Origin: an uncultured Actinomycetes bacterium
GTDB lineage: Bacteria; Actinomycetota; Acidimicrobiia; IMCC26256; JACDBD01
Direction of reading: 5' to 3'
Length of the DNA: 64,000 nucleotides
NCBI GenBank assembly: GCA_963781615.1
Contig: CAWAGI010000007.1
Coordinates: 87,652 to 151,651 of the forward strand
Shown here: one piece after another, positions 4,382 through 44,276 of the stretch
How positions within the stretch are numbered: position 1 is the stretch's first letter
How the letters are laid out: the number at the start of each line of letters is the position of its first letter
Notes under the pieces: model-generated
The model's database searches: none
What the model was told of the DNA's origin: nothing
What the model saw: only the letters and a program-made list of their open reading frames with translations
Made by a program: the position numbers and the translations under genes

Positions 4382-6619
4382 ATGGAGCCCCTCCACCGCC
4401 GGCTCGGCCTCACCGACGACGAGCTGGCGGCGGTCGTCGAGCTGCTCGGACGCGAGCCGACGGAGCTGGAGCTCGCGATGTTCGCGGTGATGTGGTCGGA
4501 GCACTGCTCGTACAAGTCGTCGCGGGCGCACCTCCGGCGGCTGCCCACCGAGGCGCCGTGGGTGCTCGTCGGCCCGGGCGAGGGCGCCGGGGTCGTCGAC
4601 ATCGGCGACGGCCTTGCGGTCGCGGTCCGGATCGAGAGCCACAACCACCCGTCGGCGGTCGAGCCCTACCAGGGCGCGGCGACGGGAGTCGGCGGCATCA
4701 TTCGCGACATCTTCTCGATGGGCGCGCGCCCTCTTGCGCTCATGGACCCACTCCGCTTCGGCCCACTGGACGACGCACGGACGCGCTACCTGCTCGAAGG
4801 CGTCGTGTCCGGGATCAGCGGCTACGGCAACGCGGTCGGCGTTCCCACCGTCGGCGGCGAGGTCGTGTTCGACGACTGCTACCGCGAGAACCCGCTCGTG
4901 AACGTCCTGTGCCTCGGCCTGCTCCCGCACGACCGGCTCGTGCTCGCCCGCGCCCGCGGCGAGGGGAACCTCGCCGTGCTGCTCGGGTCCTCGACCGGGC
5001 GCGACGGCATCGGCGGCGCCAGCGTGCTCGCGTCGGCCGGGTTCGAGGAGGGCGCGGAGGAGAAGCGCCCATCCGTGCAGGTGGGCGACCCGCTGGAGGA
5101 GAAGAAGCTCATCGAAGCGTGCCTCGCGCTGCTCGACGCCGGTCTGGCCGTCGGTGTGCAGGATCTGGGCGCCGCCGGGCTCTCGTGCGCGGCTTCGGAG
5201 ACGGCCGCCAAGGCCGGCGCCGGCATGGACGTCGACGTGGCGCGCGTGCGCCGCCGCGAGCCGGGCATGAGCGCGGTCGAGGTCATGACCTCCGAGAGTC
5301 AGGAGCGGATGCTCGTGATCGTGCAGCCCGACGATCTCGACGAGGTGCTCGGCCTGTGCGACCGGTGGGAGATCGATGCGTCCGTGGTCGGCCGGGTGAC
5401 CGACAGCCGGCGGTTCCGGGTGTTCGACGGGGTGTTCGACGAGCCCGGCGGCGCAGACGGTGACGCCGAGCCGCTGGCCGACGTCCCCGTCGAGAGCCTG
5501 GGCGACGGCCCTCTCTACGACCGGCCGCGCGCCCGCCCCGAGGGACAGGATGCGCTGCAAGCGGCCGACCCGGCGCCCGAGCTCGTTGCCCGTCTCCCCG
5601 CCGGCGCCGATGTCTCGGGTGAGCTCCTGGCGCTGCTCGCAACGCCGACGATCGCGGACAAGTCGTGGGTGTGGCGCCAGTACGACCATCAACTGTTCCT
5701 CAACACCGTCGCCGGCCCCGGCGGGGACGCCGCCGTCCTGCGCCTGAAGGGGACGGACCGCGCGCTCGCGCTCACGACCGACGGCAAGGGCCGGTTCTGC
5801 CGCCTCGACCCGCGCACCGGCGGTCGGCTCGCCGTGCTCGAGGCCGCCCGCAACGTCGCCTGTGTCGGCGCCCGGCCCCTCGCCCTTGTCAACTGCTTGA
5901 ACTTCGGCAATCCCGAGCATCCCGAGGTGATGTGGCAGTTCACCGAGGTGGTCGAGGGCATGAGCGAGGCGGCCGCCGGGCTCGAGATCCCGATCGTCGG
6001 CGGCAACGTCAGCTTCTACAACGAGTCACTCGGTCACGACATCGACCCGACCCCGGTCGTCGGGCTCCTCGGCCTGGTCGACGAGCTGGACGACCGCCCG
6101 CCGCCCGCGACCCTCGTCGAGGGAACGCGCATCGTCGTGCTCGGCGAGACGGCGACCGAGCTCGGCGGGTCGGAGTGGGCCGCCGTCGTCCACGGCCTCG
6201 ACGGCGGGATGCCACCCCGCGCCGACGTGGCCGCGGCGCGGGCCGTCAACGAGGTGGTGCGCACGCTCGTGGCCGGGGGTCTCGTCGACGGCGTGCACGA
6301 CTGCGCCGACGGTGGCCTCGCGGTCGCGCTGGCCGAGATGGCGGTCGCCGGCGAGTGCGGGTTCGACGTTGCGATCGGCGGCGCGCTCGAGTGCTTCTCC
6401 GAGTCCGCGTCGCGTGTCGTGTGCGCGGTCGACCCGGCGCTCGTCGGCGAGGTGCTGTCTCGAGCCGGCTCGGCCGGTGTCCCCGCTGTCGACGTCGGCG
6501 AGGCAAGGAGTGACCGGCTCGTCGCCCACGACGCGTTCGACGTGGCGCTGTCCGACGCGTCCCGCGCCTGGCGCGACGCGATCCCGGACGCGCTCGGCGC
6601 CGACGTCGTCGCGCGCTAG
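4382..6619 (+). CDS. purL: FGAM synthase II (large subunit)
   Basis: ATG 4382 inside ORF 3725..6619. Motifs: [50 protein letters not shown]. Confidence 0.92.
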
Positions 6620-11101: not shown

Positions 11102-11174
11102 TGGCCGGGGACGGCGTCGATCCGTCGACCCCACGCTTTTCAGGCGTGTGCTCTGCCAACTGAGCTACCCGGCC
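11102..11174 (-). tRNA. tRNA-Phe (GAA)
   Basis: The reverse complement is GGCCGGGTAGCTCAGTTGGCAGAGCACACGCCTGAAAAGCGTGGGGTCGACGGATCGACGCCGTCCCCGGCCA. It has a 7-bp acceptor stem, anticodon arm CACGC-CTGAAAA-GCGTG, and an unusual A at T-loop position 54. No CCA is encoded. Confidence 0.85.
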
Positions 11175-11203
11175 GGGAGCGGGCCGCGCACGCAGCCCGC
11201 CGG

Positions 11204-11278
11204 CGGTCCTGACGGGATTTGAACCCGCGAGCTCCGCCTTGACAGGGCGGCGTGCTAACCAGACTGCACCACAGGACC
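11204..11278 (-). tRNA. tRNA-Asp (GTC)
   Basis: The reverse complement is GGTCCTGTGGTGCAGTCTGGTTAGCACGCCGCCCTGTCAAGGCGGAGCTCGCGGGTTCAAATCCCGTCAGGACCG. Anticodon arm CCGCC-CTGTCAA-GGCGG, T-loop TTCAAAT. Confidence 0.9.
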
Positions 11279-11316
11279 ATGTCTCCGACGCTCGACGTTC
11301 GCGCCGCCGGCGCCTG

Positions 11317-11389
11317 TGCCCCCAGGGGAATTCGAATCCCCGCTACCGCCTTGAAAGGGCGGCGTCCTAGACCGCTAGACGATGGGGGC
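11317..11389 (-). tRNA. tRNA-Glu (TTC)
   Basis: The reverse complement is GCCCCCATCGTCTAGCGGTCTAGGACGCCGCCCTTTCAAGGCGGTAGCGGGGATTCGAATTCCCCTGGGGGCA. Anticodon arm CCGCC-CTTTCAA-GGCGG. Confidence 0.9.
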
Positions 11390-11491
11390 CCGTAGCTCCA
11401 CCGGGAGCATCGCATCGTATCAGCCACCCTTTCTCGTCCCGCCGGGCGATCAGTAGGGTCGGGGGAGTCGCCGCGGGCAGGAAAGAGAGAG

Positions 11492-11926
11492 ATGCGCCGA
11501 TTTCGGACCGTCGTCGCCGGGACACTCGTCTCGGCCATGACGCTCGTGACCTACCAGGTCGCCGCGGCGGGCACGACCGCCCGGCCCGCGCAATCGACGT
11601 CGGCTTTCTGCACGACTGCCCAACGGCTTCAGAGTGAGATCCAGGGCCTCGACGACATCGACCTCGAGTCCCTGAGCGTGCGGAGCATCAAGGCGATGTA
11701 CCGGCGCGACGTGAGCCTCATCAAGCAGCTCCAGAAGGAAGCTCCTCAGGAGCTGAAGGACGCGTTCAAGCGGCTGCGCCGCCTGTACCAGCGGGTCGTG
11801 GACGGAAAGCTCAAGCTCGGACAGTTGCCGAGCGCGATCTCGAGAGCAGCCGATGACCTCTCGACGATCTTCACGTATCTCGAAGACGAGTGCGGCATCA
11901 CATTCGAGACGACGACCACCACCTGA
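11492..11926 (+). CDS. hypothetical secreted protein
   Basis: 144-aa ORF with signal-like N-terminus MRRFRTVVAGTLVSAMTLVTYQVAAAG and a helical charged body. GAAAGAGAGAG lies upstream of the ATG. No family recognised. Confidence 0.55.
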   Translation: MRRFRTVVAGTLVSAMTLVTYQVAAAGTTARPAQSTSAFCTTAQRLQSEIQGLDDIDLESLSVRSIKAMYRRDVSLIKQLQKEAPQELKDAFKRLRRLYQRVVDGKLKLGQLPSAISRAADDLSTIFTYLEDECGITFETTTTT

Positions 11927-11957
11927 GCGGCGGCCGATCCGTCGTACGATCGCCCCG

Positions 11958-12030
11958 GGGCCGCTAGCTCAGTTGGCAGAGCAACGGACTTTTAATCCGA
12001 TGGTCCGGGGTTCGATTCCCCGGCGGCCCA
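11958..12030 (+). tRNA. tRNA-Lys (TTT)
   Basis: GGGCCGCTAGCTCAGTTGGCAGAGCAACGGACTTTTAATCCGATGGTCCGGGGTTCGATTCCCCGGCGGCCCA. Acceptor GGGCCGC/GCGGCCC, anticodon loop CTTTTAA, T-arm CGGGG-TTCGATT-CCCCG. Confidence 0.9.
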
Positions 12031-40335: not shown

Positions 40336-40506
40336 AATCCTCACTGCTTGCGCCAGGTGGCGTGAGAGGGTAAGGTTCGGAAGTCGGGCCCGAGGTGCGG
40401 GACGGTCGGCCTCGTTCGGGGAAGTGCGAGGTGGACCCGAAGGTTCCTCGGGCCCGGTCGCGCCGCCGTTACCCTCCCAGGCGGGACGGCGACAGGAGAC
40501 ACCTTG

Positions 40507-41313
40507 ATGCAACTCGCGCTGCTCGGCGGTGGCCGCATGGGCGAGGCCCTGCTCGCGGGGTTGCTCGACGCCGGCTGGGACACCGACGCCCTCGCCGTGG
40601 CCGAGGTCGACCCGGAGCGGCGCCGCCTGATCGAGCAGCGGTTCCGGGGCGTGCGGGTCGTGCCGAGCCCGGCGTGGGCGGTGGCCGAGAGCGACGTCGT
40701 GGTGGTGGCGGTGAAGCCCGGCGACATCGGCGCCGCGCTCGAGCAGTGCCTCACGTCGCTGAAGACCGACGCGCTGGTGCTGTCGATCGCGGCCGGCGTC
40801 ACGCTGGCCACCCTCGAGGAGGCGGTTCCCGACCGCCCGGTCGTGCGGGCGATGCCCAACACCGCCGCGCTCGTCCGCAAGGGCGCGGCCGCGATCGCGG
40901 GCGGGCGTCACGCCACCGAAGCGCATCTCGACGAGGCCGAACGGATCCTCGGGTCGGTCGGCGTGGTCGTGCGCGTCCCCGAGCCGCTGCTCGACGCCGT
41001 CACCGGCCTGTCCGGCTCGGGGCCGGCATACGTGTTCCTGGTCGCCGAGGCGATGGTGGAGGCGGGCGTCCTCGTCGGGCTGCCCCGCGAGACCGCGGCC
41101 ACCCTCGTGCACCAGACCCTCGTCGGCGCCGCCGCCCTGCTCGTCGACGGGACCGAGGGGCCGGAGGCACTCCGGGCGGCGGTGACCTCGCCCGGCGGGA
41201 CAACCGCCGCCGGCCTCGCCCGGCTCGAGGCCCACGGCGTCCGGGCAGCCTTCCTCGAGGCGGTCGAGGCCGCCACCCGCCGCTCCCGGGAGATGGGTCG
41301 CCCCGGCGAGTAA
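40507..41313 (+). CDS. proC: pyrroline-5-carboxylate reductase
   Basis: LLGGGRMGEALLAGL NAD(P) fold, VRAMPNTAALV, GLSGSGPAYVF, SPGGTTAAGL. Confidence 0.9.
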   Translation: MQLALLGGGRMGEALLAGLLDAGWDTDALAVAEVDPERRRLIEQRFRGVRVVPSPAWAVAESDVVVVAVKPGDIGAALEQCLTSLKTDALVLSIAAGVTLATLEEAVPDRPVVRAMPNTAALVRKGAAAIAGGRHATEAHLDEAERILGSVGVVVRVPEPLLDAVTGLSGSGPAYVFLVAEAMVEAGVLVGLPRETAATLVHQTLVGAAALLVDGTEGPEALRAAVTSPGGTTAAGLARLEAHGVRAAFLEAVEAATRRSREMGRPGE

Positions 41314-41434: not shown

Positions 41435-41635
41435 TTGACCGTGGCGGAGTCCTTCGCCAAAGCGCGATTCCTGACGGTGCAGGAAGTCGCGAGGCTCATG
41501 CGGGTCTCTTCGATGACGGTCTACCGCCTGATCAAGGCGGGGGACCTGCCGGCGGTGCGCGTCGGGCGCTCGTTCCGGGTGCGCGACGTCGACGTCGACG
41601 CCTATCTGGAGTCGCGGTACACGCAGGCCGGATAG
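41435..41635 (+). CDS. excisionase/MerR-like small helix-turn-helix DNA-binding protein
   Basis: FLTVQEVARLMRVSSMTVYRLIKAGDLPAVRVGRSFRV. A small HTH gene directly after proC is an arrangement I recall from mycobacteria. Confidence 0.8.
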   Translation: MTVAESFAKARFLTVQEVARLMRVSSMTVYRLIKAGDLPAVRVGRSFRVRDVDVDAYLESRYTQAG

Positions 41636-41657: not shown

Positions 41658-42594
41658 TTGGCGACCACCCCGGCTCGGCGGTTCGTCTCCTTCCTGTCCG
41701 ACTACGGCCACGCCGACGAGTTCGTCGGCGTGTGCAAGTCGGTGATGCTGAGCCTCGTCCCCGACCTGCAGATCATCGACATCACCCACGACCTCCCTCC
41801 GCACGACGTGCGCGCCGGCGCGCTCACGCTGGTCCGCGCCGCGCAGTACCTCCCGGACGGCGGCATCGTCCTCGCCGTCGTCGACCCGGGCGTCGGCACC
41901 GACCGCCGGCTGGTGGCGGTCGAGGTCGAGCACGGAGTCCTGCTCGGTCCGGACAACGGCCTGCTGGCGCCGGGCGTCGCCATCCTCGGTGGCGCGCGGC
42001 GCGTGGTTTCCCTCACGAACACCGAGCACCACCTGCCGGCGCCCGGCCCGACGTTCGCCGGGTCGCGACGTCCTCGCGCCCGCCGCCGCGCACCTCGCGG
42101 CCGGCGTCGACGCCGACGAGCTGGGCGACGAGGTCGATCCCGCCGGGCTCGTCCCCGGCCTCGTCTCACTGCCCCAGCACGACGAGGGCGGCGCGATCCA
42201 CGGCGAGGTGTGGTGGATCGACCGGTTCGGCAACTGCCAGCTCAACATCGACCCCGACGAGCTGCGCGCCCACGGCGCCGAACCGGGCGCGCCGGTCGAG
42301 GTCCGCTTTTCTCCCGGCGCCCCTCCCAGCGCCCTCGCAAGCTCGGGCTCTGCTCCGACGGTCGGCAAAGCCGCCGTCTCCGCGGGTGAACAGGCGCGCT
42401 CGGTGCGCTGGGTGCACACGTACGGCGACGCCAAACCCGCTGAGCTCGTCCTGCTCGTCGACTCCTACGGCCTGACGTCACTCGCCCTCGACCGCGGCTC
42501 GGCCGCTTCCGAGTGCAAGCTCGAGCCGGCATCGCCGGTCACGCTCGTCCCGCCCGGCGCCACCGTCACCGGCACGAGCCGGGACGGCGCGTAG
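41658..42594 (+). pseudogene. SAM hydrolase / SAM-dependent halogenase family (DUF62) protein, frame broken at about 42063 as sequenced
   Basis: ORF 41658..42389 starts FLSDYGHADEFVGVCKSVM, VVDPGVGT, GPDNGLL. After PTFAG, skipping t42063 gives RDVLAPAAAHLAAG..., then WWIDRFGNCQLN and LVDSYGLTSLAL (ORF 41989..42594). Confidence 0.8.
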
Positions 42595-42596
42595 CC

Positions 42597-42689
42597 GTGC
42601 GCCCCGGCACCACGATCGCCATCGCGGTCCTGCTCTTCATCATCCTCGCGGCGGCGTTCGCCCAGTTCGTGTTGCGCCTCGGGCCCTGA
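42597..42689 (+). CDS. possible 30-aa single-pass membrane peptide
   Basis: GTG lies 3 nt after the DUF62 stop. Sequence VRPGTTIAIAVLLFIILAAAFAQFVLRLGP-stop. It is below the ORF-track size cutoff and there is no homology evidence. Confidence 0.3.
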   Translation: MRPGTTIAIAVLLFIILAAAFAQFVLRLGP

Positions 42690-42870
42690 CAACCCACGGG
42701 GCGAGGAATCGGGGCTCCGGCCGTGGGTGTGGTGCTTGGGGCGGGCTGGGAGGCTGTTCCACGAGCGCCACCCCATGACAGCGCGGCGCCCGCGGCCCCC
42801 ACACCCACGGACCGGAACCCCGAATCGCGCGGGGCATCGACCGGGCCGCCTCGCGCCTTTCGTGGGTTGT
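42689..42870. other. 182-nt nested imperfect inverted repeat (candidate structured RNA or palindromic element)
   Basis: Nested pairings: 42689-42698 with 42861-42870 (10/10); 42701-42706 with 42849-42854 (6/6); 42707-42720 with 42812-42825 (12/14); 42721-42732 with 42799-42810 (12/12). An unpaired 23-nt insert sits at 42826-42848. Confidence 0.6.
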
Positions 42871-42974
42871 ACCACGGAGCGTGAGACCACGCACGCGAGG
42901 GTGCGAATCGCCCAGGCGTCCAAGATCGGGCGGCGGGCGGGCGCGGCTGGCGGGCGCGGCGGTACGTTCCGGCT

Positions 42975-44276
42975 GTGCGTGTCCCCGAGCGTCAGGCCGA
43001 CGTGCTCGCCGATGCCGACGTGGTCGTGGCCGGGGGTGGGCCGGCGGGGCTCGGCGCGGCGGTCGCCGCCGCCCGTGCGGGCGCCCGCGTCGTCCTCTGC
43101 GAGCGATACGGGTTCCTCGGCGGCAACCTCACCGTGGCCAAGGTCGGCACGATCTGCGGCCTCTATGTCGGCGACGACGCCGGCGAGTTCGACTTCGTCG
43201 TCGGCGGGATCGCCCGCGAGGTCGCGGAGGCGCTCGCGCGCGCCGGCGCCGGTGTCGGGCCGGTGCCGTTCAAGGAGACGGCCGTGTTCCTGTACGCGCC
43301 GTGGGCAGTCAAACGCCTCGCCGACCACCTCGTCACCGACGAGGAGTCGGTGGACGTGCTGCTCCACGCGCTCGTCGCCGACGCCCTCGTCGACGACGGC
43401 GCGTTGCGCGCGCTGGTGCTCGCGACCAAACGCGGACCGCGCGCACTGACGGGGAAGGTGTTCGTCGACTGCACCGGCGACGCCGACGTCGCCACCTTCG
43501 CCGGCGTCCCGACCGAGCTCGGTCCGCCCGGCCACCGCCAGTTCGGGTCGATGCAGTTCGTGATGCAGCACGTCGACGCGGCGGCGGCGCTCGCCGCGGT
43601 TCCCGCGCTCGGCGACCTGATCGCCGAGCACGGCGCCCACCTGTCGCGCGACGGGGGTGCCGTCATCCCGACGTTCCGGCCCGGTGAGTTCGTCGGCGCG
43701 ATGACGCGCGTCCGCAATCCCGACGGCAGCCCCGTCGACGTCACCGACGTCCGCCAGGCGACGTGGGGCGAGCTCGAAGGCCGCCGGCTCGCGGAGGAAG
43801 CAGCCGCGTTCCTCCAGGAGCACGTCCCCGGCTTCTCGGACGCCTTCCTCGACGACACCGCCACCGCGCTGGGCGTGCGCGAGACGCGACGGGTGGTCGG
43901 CGACTACGTGCTCACCGGGAACGACGTCGCCCGCGGGGCGACCTTCGACGACGCCGTCGCGCGCGGCGCGTGGCCGCGCGAGTACCACGTGCACGGACGC
44001 ACGACCGAGTACGAGTTCCTGCCCGCCGGGGTCAGCTATCAGGTGCCGTTCGCCAGCCTGCGACCCCGCGGGGTGCCGAACCTCCTGGTCGCCGGGCGCT
44101 GCCTGTCCGCCGACCACGACGCCCTGGCGTCGATCCGCGTCATGGGCCCGAGCCTGGCGCTGGGCCAGGCGGCCGGCACCGCCGCCGCCCTGGCCGCGCG
44201 CGACGGCGTCGCCGTCGCCGACGTCGCGGTAGACGAGCTGCAGGCGTCACTGTCGAAGCAGGGAGCGGTCCTGTGA
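42975..44276 (+). CDS. FAD-dependent oxidoreductase
   Basis: Dinucleotide fold DVVVAGGGPAGLGAAVAAARAGARVVLCE. CTGDADV and a C-terminal GRCLSAD motif are typical of the FAD_oxidored family. Confidence 0.75.
   Translation: MRVPERQADVLADADVVVAGGGPAGLGAAVAAARAGARVVLCERYGFLGGNLTVAKVGTICGLYVGDDAGEFDFVVGGIAREVAEALARAGAGVGPVPFKETAVFLYAPWAVKRLADHLVTDEESVDVLLHALVADALVDDGALRALVLATKRGPRALTGKVFVDCTGDADVATFAGVPTELGPPGHRQFGSMQFVMQHVDAAAALAAVPALGDLIAEHGAHLSRDGGAVIPTFRPGEFVGAMTRVRNPDGSPVDVTDVRQATWGELEGRRLAEEAAAFLQEHVPGFSDAFLDDTATALGVRETRRVVGDYVLTGNDVARGATFDDAVARGAWPREYHVHGRTTEYEFLPAGVSYQVPFASLRPRGVPNLLVAGRCLSADHDALASIRVMGPSLALGQAAGTAAALAARDGVAVADVAVDELQASLSKQGAVL

Follow-up and report, generated by a model that had tools for sequence, protein, structure and literature searches.

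What is the long nested hairpin that lies between a DUF62 gene and a gene for an FAD oxidoreductase in this stretch of DNA? The window, by which we mean the whole stretch of 64,000 nucleotides that was analysed, has a G+C content of 71%, and its protein matches assign it to uncultured Acidimicrobiia. To the left of the hairpin are proC (40504-41313), an HTH_17 gene (41435-41635), the DUF62 (SAM hydrolase) gene (41658-42594) and, starting 3 nt past the DUF62 stop codon, a hydrophobic 30-codon open reading frame on the plus strand (42597-42689; MRPGTTIAIAVLLFIILAAAFAQFVLRLGP). To the right are the FAD oxidoreductase gene (PF12831; 42975-44276) and, beyond it, a gene for an AMP-binding enzyme. 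The element sits between convergent units. The small open reading frame has no Pfam match and was detected by tblastn in 37 loci, distant ones included. An exact-sequence look-up of the FAD protein found no record. Compared with three close relatives, the DUF62 gene has one extra nucleotide near 42061-42065 (TTCGCCGGGTCGCGAC versus TTCG-CGGGGCGCGAC), which breaks it into two reading frames; judged from the sequence, it would be either a pseudogene or the product of an assembly error.

An earlier note on this DNA described the hairpin as a 182-nt element (42689-42870) of four nested helices and offered three identities for it: a 6S-like rod-shaped RNA, an oversized terminator, or a repeated palindromic element of the MITE/REP type. 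It named Rfam (6S, Ms1 and small-RNA models) and covariation among related genomes as means of choosing between them. The pairing is present exactly as described: 42689-98 with 42861-70 (10/10 pairs), GCGAGG at 42701-06 with CCTCGC at 42849-54 (6/6), 42707-20 with 42812-25 (12/14) and 42721-32 with 42799-810 (12/12). The intergenic placement, between the 30-codon reading frame that follows DUF62 and the FAD oxidoreductase gene, is also correct. The pairing exceeds chance, since the 182 nt out-fold their shuffles on both strands (-114.9 kcal/mol, z -4.95, on the plus strand; -120.2 kcal/mol, z -6.31, on the minus strand), and none of 200 shuffles matched the fold energy.

The 182-nt unit is a composite. 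Its inner helices (42707-32 with 42799-825) are conserved; the outer two helices (42689-98/42861-70 and 42701-06/42849-54) occur in this genome and in none of the relatives, and the local hairpin CCCCG..CGGGG proposed within 42826-42848 is likewise kept by no relative. The left arm of the outermost helix (42689-42698) is lineage-specific and lies beyond the 3' end of the RNA that we describe below. Its partner arm (42861-42870) runs into the -35 region, ahead of where transcription is predicted to start, and the 10-bp outer helix exists in the window because that -35 region has changed in this genome. The original coordinates thus combine a conserved RNA with genome-specific helices that run into the promoter. 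As comparison with relatives defines it, the conserved unit has a folded part, 42711-42821, that is smaller than 182 nt, and a putative promoter part that reaches further right, to about 42931.

Conservation at this locus is concentrated in the element. With the FAD protein as query we collected 44 loci from Acidimicrobiia and Actinomycetota genome bins, and 30 of them have the element, each time in the same intergenic region. The conserved stretch corresponds to 42707-42826 of the window. Within it a 19-nt block (42737-42755; TGGGGCGGGCTGGGAGGCT on the plus strand) is essentially invariant, and all 31 sequences share its 17-nt core without a change, including those of relatives whose FAD protein is only 66-79% identical. 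Identity of the RNA region to the window is 95-98% in the nearest relatives and 87-89% in other close relatives; among close relatives it is 83-88% for the FAD gene, 84-91% for proC, 84-92% for the small open reading frame and 76-82% for the sequence directly upstream of the RNA. No other DNA in the neighbourhood is as well conserved as the element. A covariance model (R1) trained on the 31 sequences gives one strong match per locus across 45 sources (711 kb), and its remaining matches there are weak echoes of that site on the reverse strand. The 64-kb window has no second copy, and a search of a plasmid collection with the intergenic region gave no match.

The changes that separate these sequences follow the pairing of a minus-strand RNA. 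In the minus-sense alignment the consensus structure has an energy of -54.6 kcal/mol and 34 pairs, 13 of them with compensatory changes; the plus-sense alignment gives -24.4 kcal/mol and 2 such pairs. In the two main helices, which hold 13 pairs with compensatory changes, 96.7% of cells are paired; none of 500 shuffles reaches any of the five measures, and pairing falls to 42-48% when the partners are slid. When 50 distinct sequences are aligned to the model, an alignment that is biased towards the structure to which it was fitted, 21 of the 34 pairs show compensatory changes. The earlier note had pointed out that one C-A mismatch on the plus strand would be a G-U pair on the minus strand, a hint that is upheld by the comparison across relatives: helix cells on the minus-sense strand hold 163 G-U against 6 A-C. 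Such an asymmetry is impossible from a constraint on double-stranded DNA, and therefore the constraint acts on the minus-strand transcript. Covariation is thus strong (13 to 21 pairs). Together with the G-U/A-C asymmetry, the top local conservation and a promoter-like motif of its own, it bears out the suggestion of a dedicated structured RNA, probably on the minus strand. We think it very probable that the locus is a functional minus-strand RNA gene, as predicted.

The predicted small RNA is about 125 nt long (42705-42828, minus strand, from covariance model R1 and folding), with its 5' end placed by the promoter motif and its 3' end by the end of the closing helix and a short pyrimidine tail. 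R1 matches 42698-42832 on the minus strand with 127 bits, and the minus-strand fold has an energy of -89 kcal/mol (z -6.3). A closing helix of 22 bp is formed by a 5' arm at 42799-42821 and a 3' arm at 42711-42732, which corresponds to the third and fourth helices of the original description; 95-96% of its cells are paired and 9 to 14 of its 22 pairs show compensatory changes. The apical hairpin (42761-42793) varies in sequence and keeps its pairing, with compensatory changes in 4 to 7 of 8 pairs and G-U pairs on the minus-sense strand only. Between the two, on the 3' side of the RNA, lies a single-stranded internal loop of 28 nt (42733-42760, minus strand; GGAACAGCCUCCCAGCCCGCCCCAAGCA) that is unpaired in both the centroid and consensus folds. 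The loop is one-sided, with 0-5 nt on the 5' side versus 26-28 nt on the 3' side. It contains the invariant 17-mer GCCUCCCAGCCCGCCCC (42738-42754, minus strand), identical in all 31 sequences found via the flanking protein, and it is C-rich and includes an anti-Shine-Dalgarno-like CCUCCC. The tail past the closing helix reads GAUUCCUCG in the window and is richer in U in some relatives. A consensus scan of 42300-43300 found no intrinsic terminator.

The family extends beyond the loci collected with the FAD protein. An exact scan of metagenome contigs for the 17-mer returned at least 120 stretches. About 50 of the 120 matches listed are genuine family members and over half of those listed are chance; the matches in viral contigs seem to be chance, inside unrelated, probably coding, sequence. 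The genuine loci share a common plan of 5' arm, hairpin, (A)GCCUCCCAGCCCGCCCC(A) and 3' arm with differing arm sequences, and the model made from the window's variant detects all variants, with 22-131 bits. The energy of the arm-to-arm duplex does not separate real from chance matches in GC-rich DNA. A recognizable neighbour (DUF62, AMP-binding enzyme or CAP) is present in about 45 of the metagenome loci listed, and most of these about 45 have a DUF62 gene that stops, at its 3' end, 100-400 nt short of the RNA and encodes a protein with 50-94% identity to the window's. The RNA and the DUF62 gene are mostly convergent and sometimes run in the same direction. The DUF62 proteins beside what we call variant B are named Acidimicrobiia by NCBI; in variant C, DUF62 is a few kb from the RNA and the proteins are named only 'Actinomycetota bacterium'. 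The RNA is thus shown to be single-copy and nearly always adjoining a DUF62 gene, in Acidimicrobiia and related uncultured Actinomycetota. Rfam has no match at the element in 32 loci (20 at the gathering threshold, 12 at a permissive one).

Variant B has the same architecture and, directly after the rod, a canonical GC hairpin followed by U's, the stem of which has twelve pairs with compensatory changes. Its closing helix is seen in single-sequence folds only, and the MAFFT alignment does not recover it. The apical loop of variant B (for example, in L049 at 5176-5347, minus strand) carries a second conserved block, GGCACGUUC, that is missing from the window's variant and might form a pseudoknot with a GAACG further downstream.

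Upstream of the RNA there is a conserved bipartite motif. In 34 loci it has the form C(T/A)CAAG(G/T/A)-N15/16-CGA(T/A), and its distance to the 5' arm is 8-13 nt in most of the 34, with an extra insert in a minority. CTCAAGG-N16-CGAT lies at a fixed distance from the RNA; the best examples read TCAA-N16-GNCGATAA. Strict matches to CTCAAG[GTA]-N16-CGAT occur 38 times in 1.49 Mb, versus 1.15 expected from dinucleotide shuffles, and nearly all of them precede either the RNA or a CAP-domain gene. The published consensus is T(A/C)AA-N16-GCCGATAA for WhiG2 and CTCA-N16-17-GCCGA for WhiG1, and the central CGA is the most conserved part of the actinobacterial sigma-28-family consensus (PMC12871210, PMC8325347). 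The motif can be written TCAA-N16-G(N)CGATAA or CTCA-N17-(N)CCGA, and in either form it agrees with this sigma-28-family consensus. The window itself has GAAA-N16-GTCGATGC, with one mismatch to the consensus in the -35 and three in the -10. Its -10-like element GTCGATGC (42834-42841, minus strand; consensus GCCGATAA) keeps the central CGA and aligns with the CGAT of the 34 relatives; its -35-like element is a degenerate CGAAAGG (42856-42862, minus strand) where relatives have CTCAAGG, and the spacing is GAAA-N16-GTCGAT. From this fit of the motif we consider it rather likely that the RNA has a promoter of the sigma-28 family (WhiG/FliA). A scan of the window gave no further convincing sigma-28-like motifs.

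Alignment with variant B also set aside two other assignments near the 5' end. GGTACAAAAT had been a candidate -10 element and is displaced by the CTCAAGG-N16-CGAT pair. The hairpin GCGCGAGGC..GCCTCGCGC, an inverted repeat of close relatives that had been a candidate for the 5' end of the RNA, falls inside the promoter spacer and is therefore probably no part of the RNA. The upstream motif fits the CGA-centred consensus of the WhiG/FliA regulons of Actinomycetota. The searches that defined those regulons scored only motifs at most 200 bp from a start codon (PMC8325347, PMC12871210), so that an RNA gene would go unreported as such. A 2026 preprint on WhiG/FliA regulons leaves Acidimicrobiia unmentioned.

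The same motif links the RNA to a secreted protein. In distant relatives an open reading frame of about 216 codons, with a match to the CAP/SCP domain (PF00188, profile positions 2-113 of 117), lies between the promoter motif and the RNA, and it ends inside the RNA structure (L038, 9228-9878, and L019, 9220-9873, both minus strand, and similar loci). There the 5' arm and apical hairpin of the RNA are the codons ...DPGFRYVGVGVVNANGT.YVSEVF at the end of the CAP domain, its last 35 or so codons, the invariant block encodes ASQPAP and the 3' arm falls within a linker rich in Pro, Ala, Ser and Thr. Variant-B genomes have a separate CAP gene, across DUF62 from the RNA, that carries a CTCAAGG-N16-CGAT motif of its own (L139 at about 4510 and L154 at about 962, both minus strand), an arrangement that suggests that the CAP gene and the RNA may belong to one regulon. 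The window's group has lost the CAP reading frame and retained the promoter and the RNA, the 5' arm of which still resembles CAP codons. We infer from these arrangements that the RNA and CAP are probably co-regulated and that, in the window's lineage, the RNA would derive from the 3' end of a CAP transcript. The invariant motif is not conserved as protein: lineages differ in the reading frame over it, a stop codon closes one frame in variant B, and all three codon positions are unvarying.

Several rod-shaped RNAs invite comparison. 6S and Ms1 are RNAs that bind RNA polymerase and have, like the RNA here, a rod-like fold with an internal loop (PMC9130861). However, 6S/Ms1 are 160-300 nt long and this RNA is about 125 nt. 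6S, at 160-200 nt (the shortest cited is about 160 nt; PMC9130861), has two opposed single strands in a central bubble, whereas our RNA, with ends that are inferred, has a loop on one side. Rfam 15 finds only four tRNA genes in the window, clustered at 11102-12030 (three minus-strand, one plus-strand); in the element nothing relevant appears even at E<=10. The 6S model matches neither at its gathering score (window and 20 loci) nor at E<=10 or E<=5 (element region and 12 loci). By blastn, S. coelicolor Ms1 (PMC9130861, supplement) gives chance matches only to the window and all loci and none at the element, and the invariant motif occurs neither in that Ms1 sequence nor in the supplement of the Ms1 paper. 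6S RNA is reported to be missing from Actinobacteria, and the Ms1 survey does not mention Acidimicrobiia. The published Ms1 loci lie between genes for a HAD-IB hydrolase ('inhibition of morphological differentiation') and an oxidoreductase (PMC9130861). The oxidoreductase side agrees in name with our locus, whereas the other side here is DUF62 and the 30-codon reading frame, with no HAD-IB hydrolase. An equation of Rv3661 with a DUF62 protein, which would have pointed to the Ms1 locus, was considered and ruled out; the Ms1 paper uses 'inhibition of morphological differentiation', the phrase attached to Rv3661, for a HAD-IB hydrolase. The label of a 6S- or Ms1-like RNA is thus not one that the comparison favours.

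The element appears to be undescribed. Literature searches (Acidimicrobiia with ncRNA, WhiG with sRNA, DUF62 with RNA) found no description of it, and a full-text search with the motif string gave one irrelevant match. To judge from its sequence and these searches, it represents a small-RNA family, new and uncatalogued, that belongs to Acidimicrobiia and related Actinomycetota.

Other small RNAs resemble this one in parts. The 6C RNA (RF01066; B11 in mycobacteria) and RoxS/RsaE of Firmicutes have C-rich unpaired motifs that pair with G-rich ribosome-binding sites. They share with the RNA described here an unpaired C-rich motif carried on stable helices and very high sequence conservation over a large taxon, and 6C shares its actinobacterial host. 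In 6C the C-rich motifs sit in the apical loops of two short hairpins, whereas here there is one long rod with the motif in a one-sided internal loop and a much longer invariant stretch (17-19 nt), and RF01066 has no match in the element or the loci. MotR, FliX, UhpU and FlgO are sigma-28-dependent small RNAs of E. coli, and MicL, DapZ and CpxQ are small RNAs from the 3' ends of mRNAs. The RNA here resembles these in its sigma-28-type promoter motif, the use of which is predicted, and in being the 3' end of a regulon mRNA in some lineages, although host and sequence are unrelated. Its structure differs in that it overlaps about 35 CAP-domain codons and so reaches beyond the untranslated region.

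What would such an RNA do? The best explanation, which we hold to be fairly likely, is a stand-alone structured small RNA with its own promoter (about 42705-42862, minus strand) and a loop that acts in trans. A promoter of the sigma-28 family (WhiG/FliA) would produce the RNA together with the secreted CAP-domain protein that bears the same motif, and the GC-rich closing helix and pyrimidine tail would end the transcript. The exposed C-rich loop could then base-pair in trans with target mRNAs, at their G-rich ribosome-binding regions, and lower their translation or stability, as is reported for 6C and RoxS/RsaE. The anti-Shine-Dalgarno-like CCUCCC in the loop makes pairing with G-rich ribosome-binding sites the simplest reading. 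By analogy with those RNAs we offer loop pairing as a tentative mode of action, plausible rather than likely. Neither of two candidate targets held up. Complementarity between the loop and the 5' leader of CAP is inconsistent, with a z of -3.9 in one locus and values near 0 in the others. The loop matches the ribosome-binding site of the small open reading frame at chance level (mean z +0.25, n=37), which speaks against a type I toxin-antitoxin pair with the hydrophobic 30-residue peptide. The 17-19 invariant bases are far above what a pairing seed typically needs and point as much to a protein, ribosome or ligand as the partner.

This last point leads to the first of the other readings, in which the RNA binds a protein or large complex instead of mRNAs and the invariant loop serves as a decoy or scaffold. 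Candidate partners would be RNA polymerase, as for 6S and Ms1, or a factor that recognizes the CCUCC-containing 3' end of 16S rRNA. The rod-plus-loop shape is suited to such a role, a run of 17-19 invariant bases fits a protein, ribosome or ligand site better than a pairing seed, and 6S is reported missing from Actinobacteria and the Ms1 survey is silent on Acidimicrobiia. We nevertheless consider this reading unlikely, given the lack of an Rfam 6S match (E<=10) or similarity to S. coelicolor Ms1, a predicted length of about 125 nt against about 160 nt for the shortest 6S cited (PMC9130861), a one-sided loop (0-5 versus 26-28 nt) unlike a mimic of a promoter bubble, and the absence of the Ms1 synteny with its HAD-IB hydrolase. 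A bolder form, distinctly unlikely in our estimation, is that of a class-wide, sigma-28-controlled RNA with an invariant 19-nt loop that mimics the anti-Shine-Dalgarno end of 16S rRNA or engages another universal partner and acts globally. Such an RNA would soak up ribosome-binding sites or a ribosome or polymerase factor. If true, it would do the work of 6S and Ms1 in a lineage that has no known example of either, and would be linked to the WhiG/c-di-GMP lifestyle switch.

Two further classes of explanation do without a trans-acting RNA. The element might be a cis-acting 3' element, either a remnant of the CAP-gene terminator or stabilizer or a two-way terminator. In distant relatives the structure is indeed the 3' end of the CAP mRNA, the window's element lies between convergent units, and its GC-rich closing helix leads into a pyrimidine tail. 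A terminator needs no invariant unpaired loop, however, and the idea of an oversized terminator, which the earlier note had entertained, leaves 17-19 nt that never vary unexplained. Variant B has a separate canonical terminator past the rod, the promoter motif is kept where the CAP gene is absent, and the unit is kept in both orientations relative to its neighbours; taken together, these observations make a cis-acting element very unlikely. It is scarcely credible that the element acts as DNA, as an invertible segment, a recombination site or a palindromic protein-binding site, with the hairpin a by-product. In favour of this reading, close relatives differ in the orientation of the entire unit, which a rough tree explains by at least three flips, and an inverted repeat of about 20 nt brackets the unit in the window (42689-42706 with 42849-42870). 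Against this stand the 163:6 excess of G-U over A-C on one strand, which constraint on double-stranded DNA cannot produce, and the absence of consistent flanking inverted repeats in relatives and of any recombinase among identified neighbours. Orientation is also uniform in the largest inverted clade, which looks like rare fixed events and not switching. Lastly, a dispersed repeat of the REP or MITE type, also entertained at the outset, has the palindromic shape alone in its favour and can practically be dismissed, as the element is present once in the 64-kb window and once at each locus in the 711 kb of relatives, always in the same neighbourhood.

The element bears on a poorly charted group. 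Acidimicrobiia are abundant in soil, freshwater and the sea and almost none have been cultured, and we found no small RNAs described for them in the literature. The element supplies a ready covariance model for a class-wide RNA. An RNA and a secreted CAP-domain protein would join the predicted sigma-28 (WhiG/FliA) regulon, for which published searches scored protein-coding genes only. In some lineages the last 35 codons of the CAP domain are also part of the RNA structure, and in others the RNA outlives that gene. Should the invariant loop bind a universal partner, the RNA could be a global regulator in a phylum reported to be without 6S RNA.

The locus is also a case of a small gene with repeated flips of orientation at one site. 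In nine loci (L001-L006, L018, L023 and L043) the stretch corresponding to 42703-42931/56 of the window is matched by blastn in reverse, with the small open reading frame forward; the comparison also takes in L013 and L014. The small reading frame and the FAD gene stay in place where the RNA unit is inverted, and the region upstream of the promoter (42863-42931, minus strand, by blastn) travels with the RNA. A rough tree made from the FAD protein by neighbour joining requires three or more independent flips. We found no consistent flanking inverted repeats in the relatives, and no recombinase was seen among the identified flanking genes of the window and the metagenome loci. The 3' end of the small reading frame (GCGCCTCGGGCC, 42671-42689) resembles the plus-strand sequence of the promoter spacer (CCGCCTCGCGCC, 42847-42862), and in inverted relatives such as L004 these two segments form a 16-nt inverted repeat, which could be the substrate of inversion or could be due to chance.
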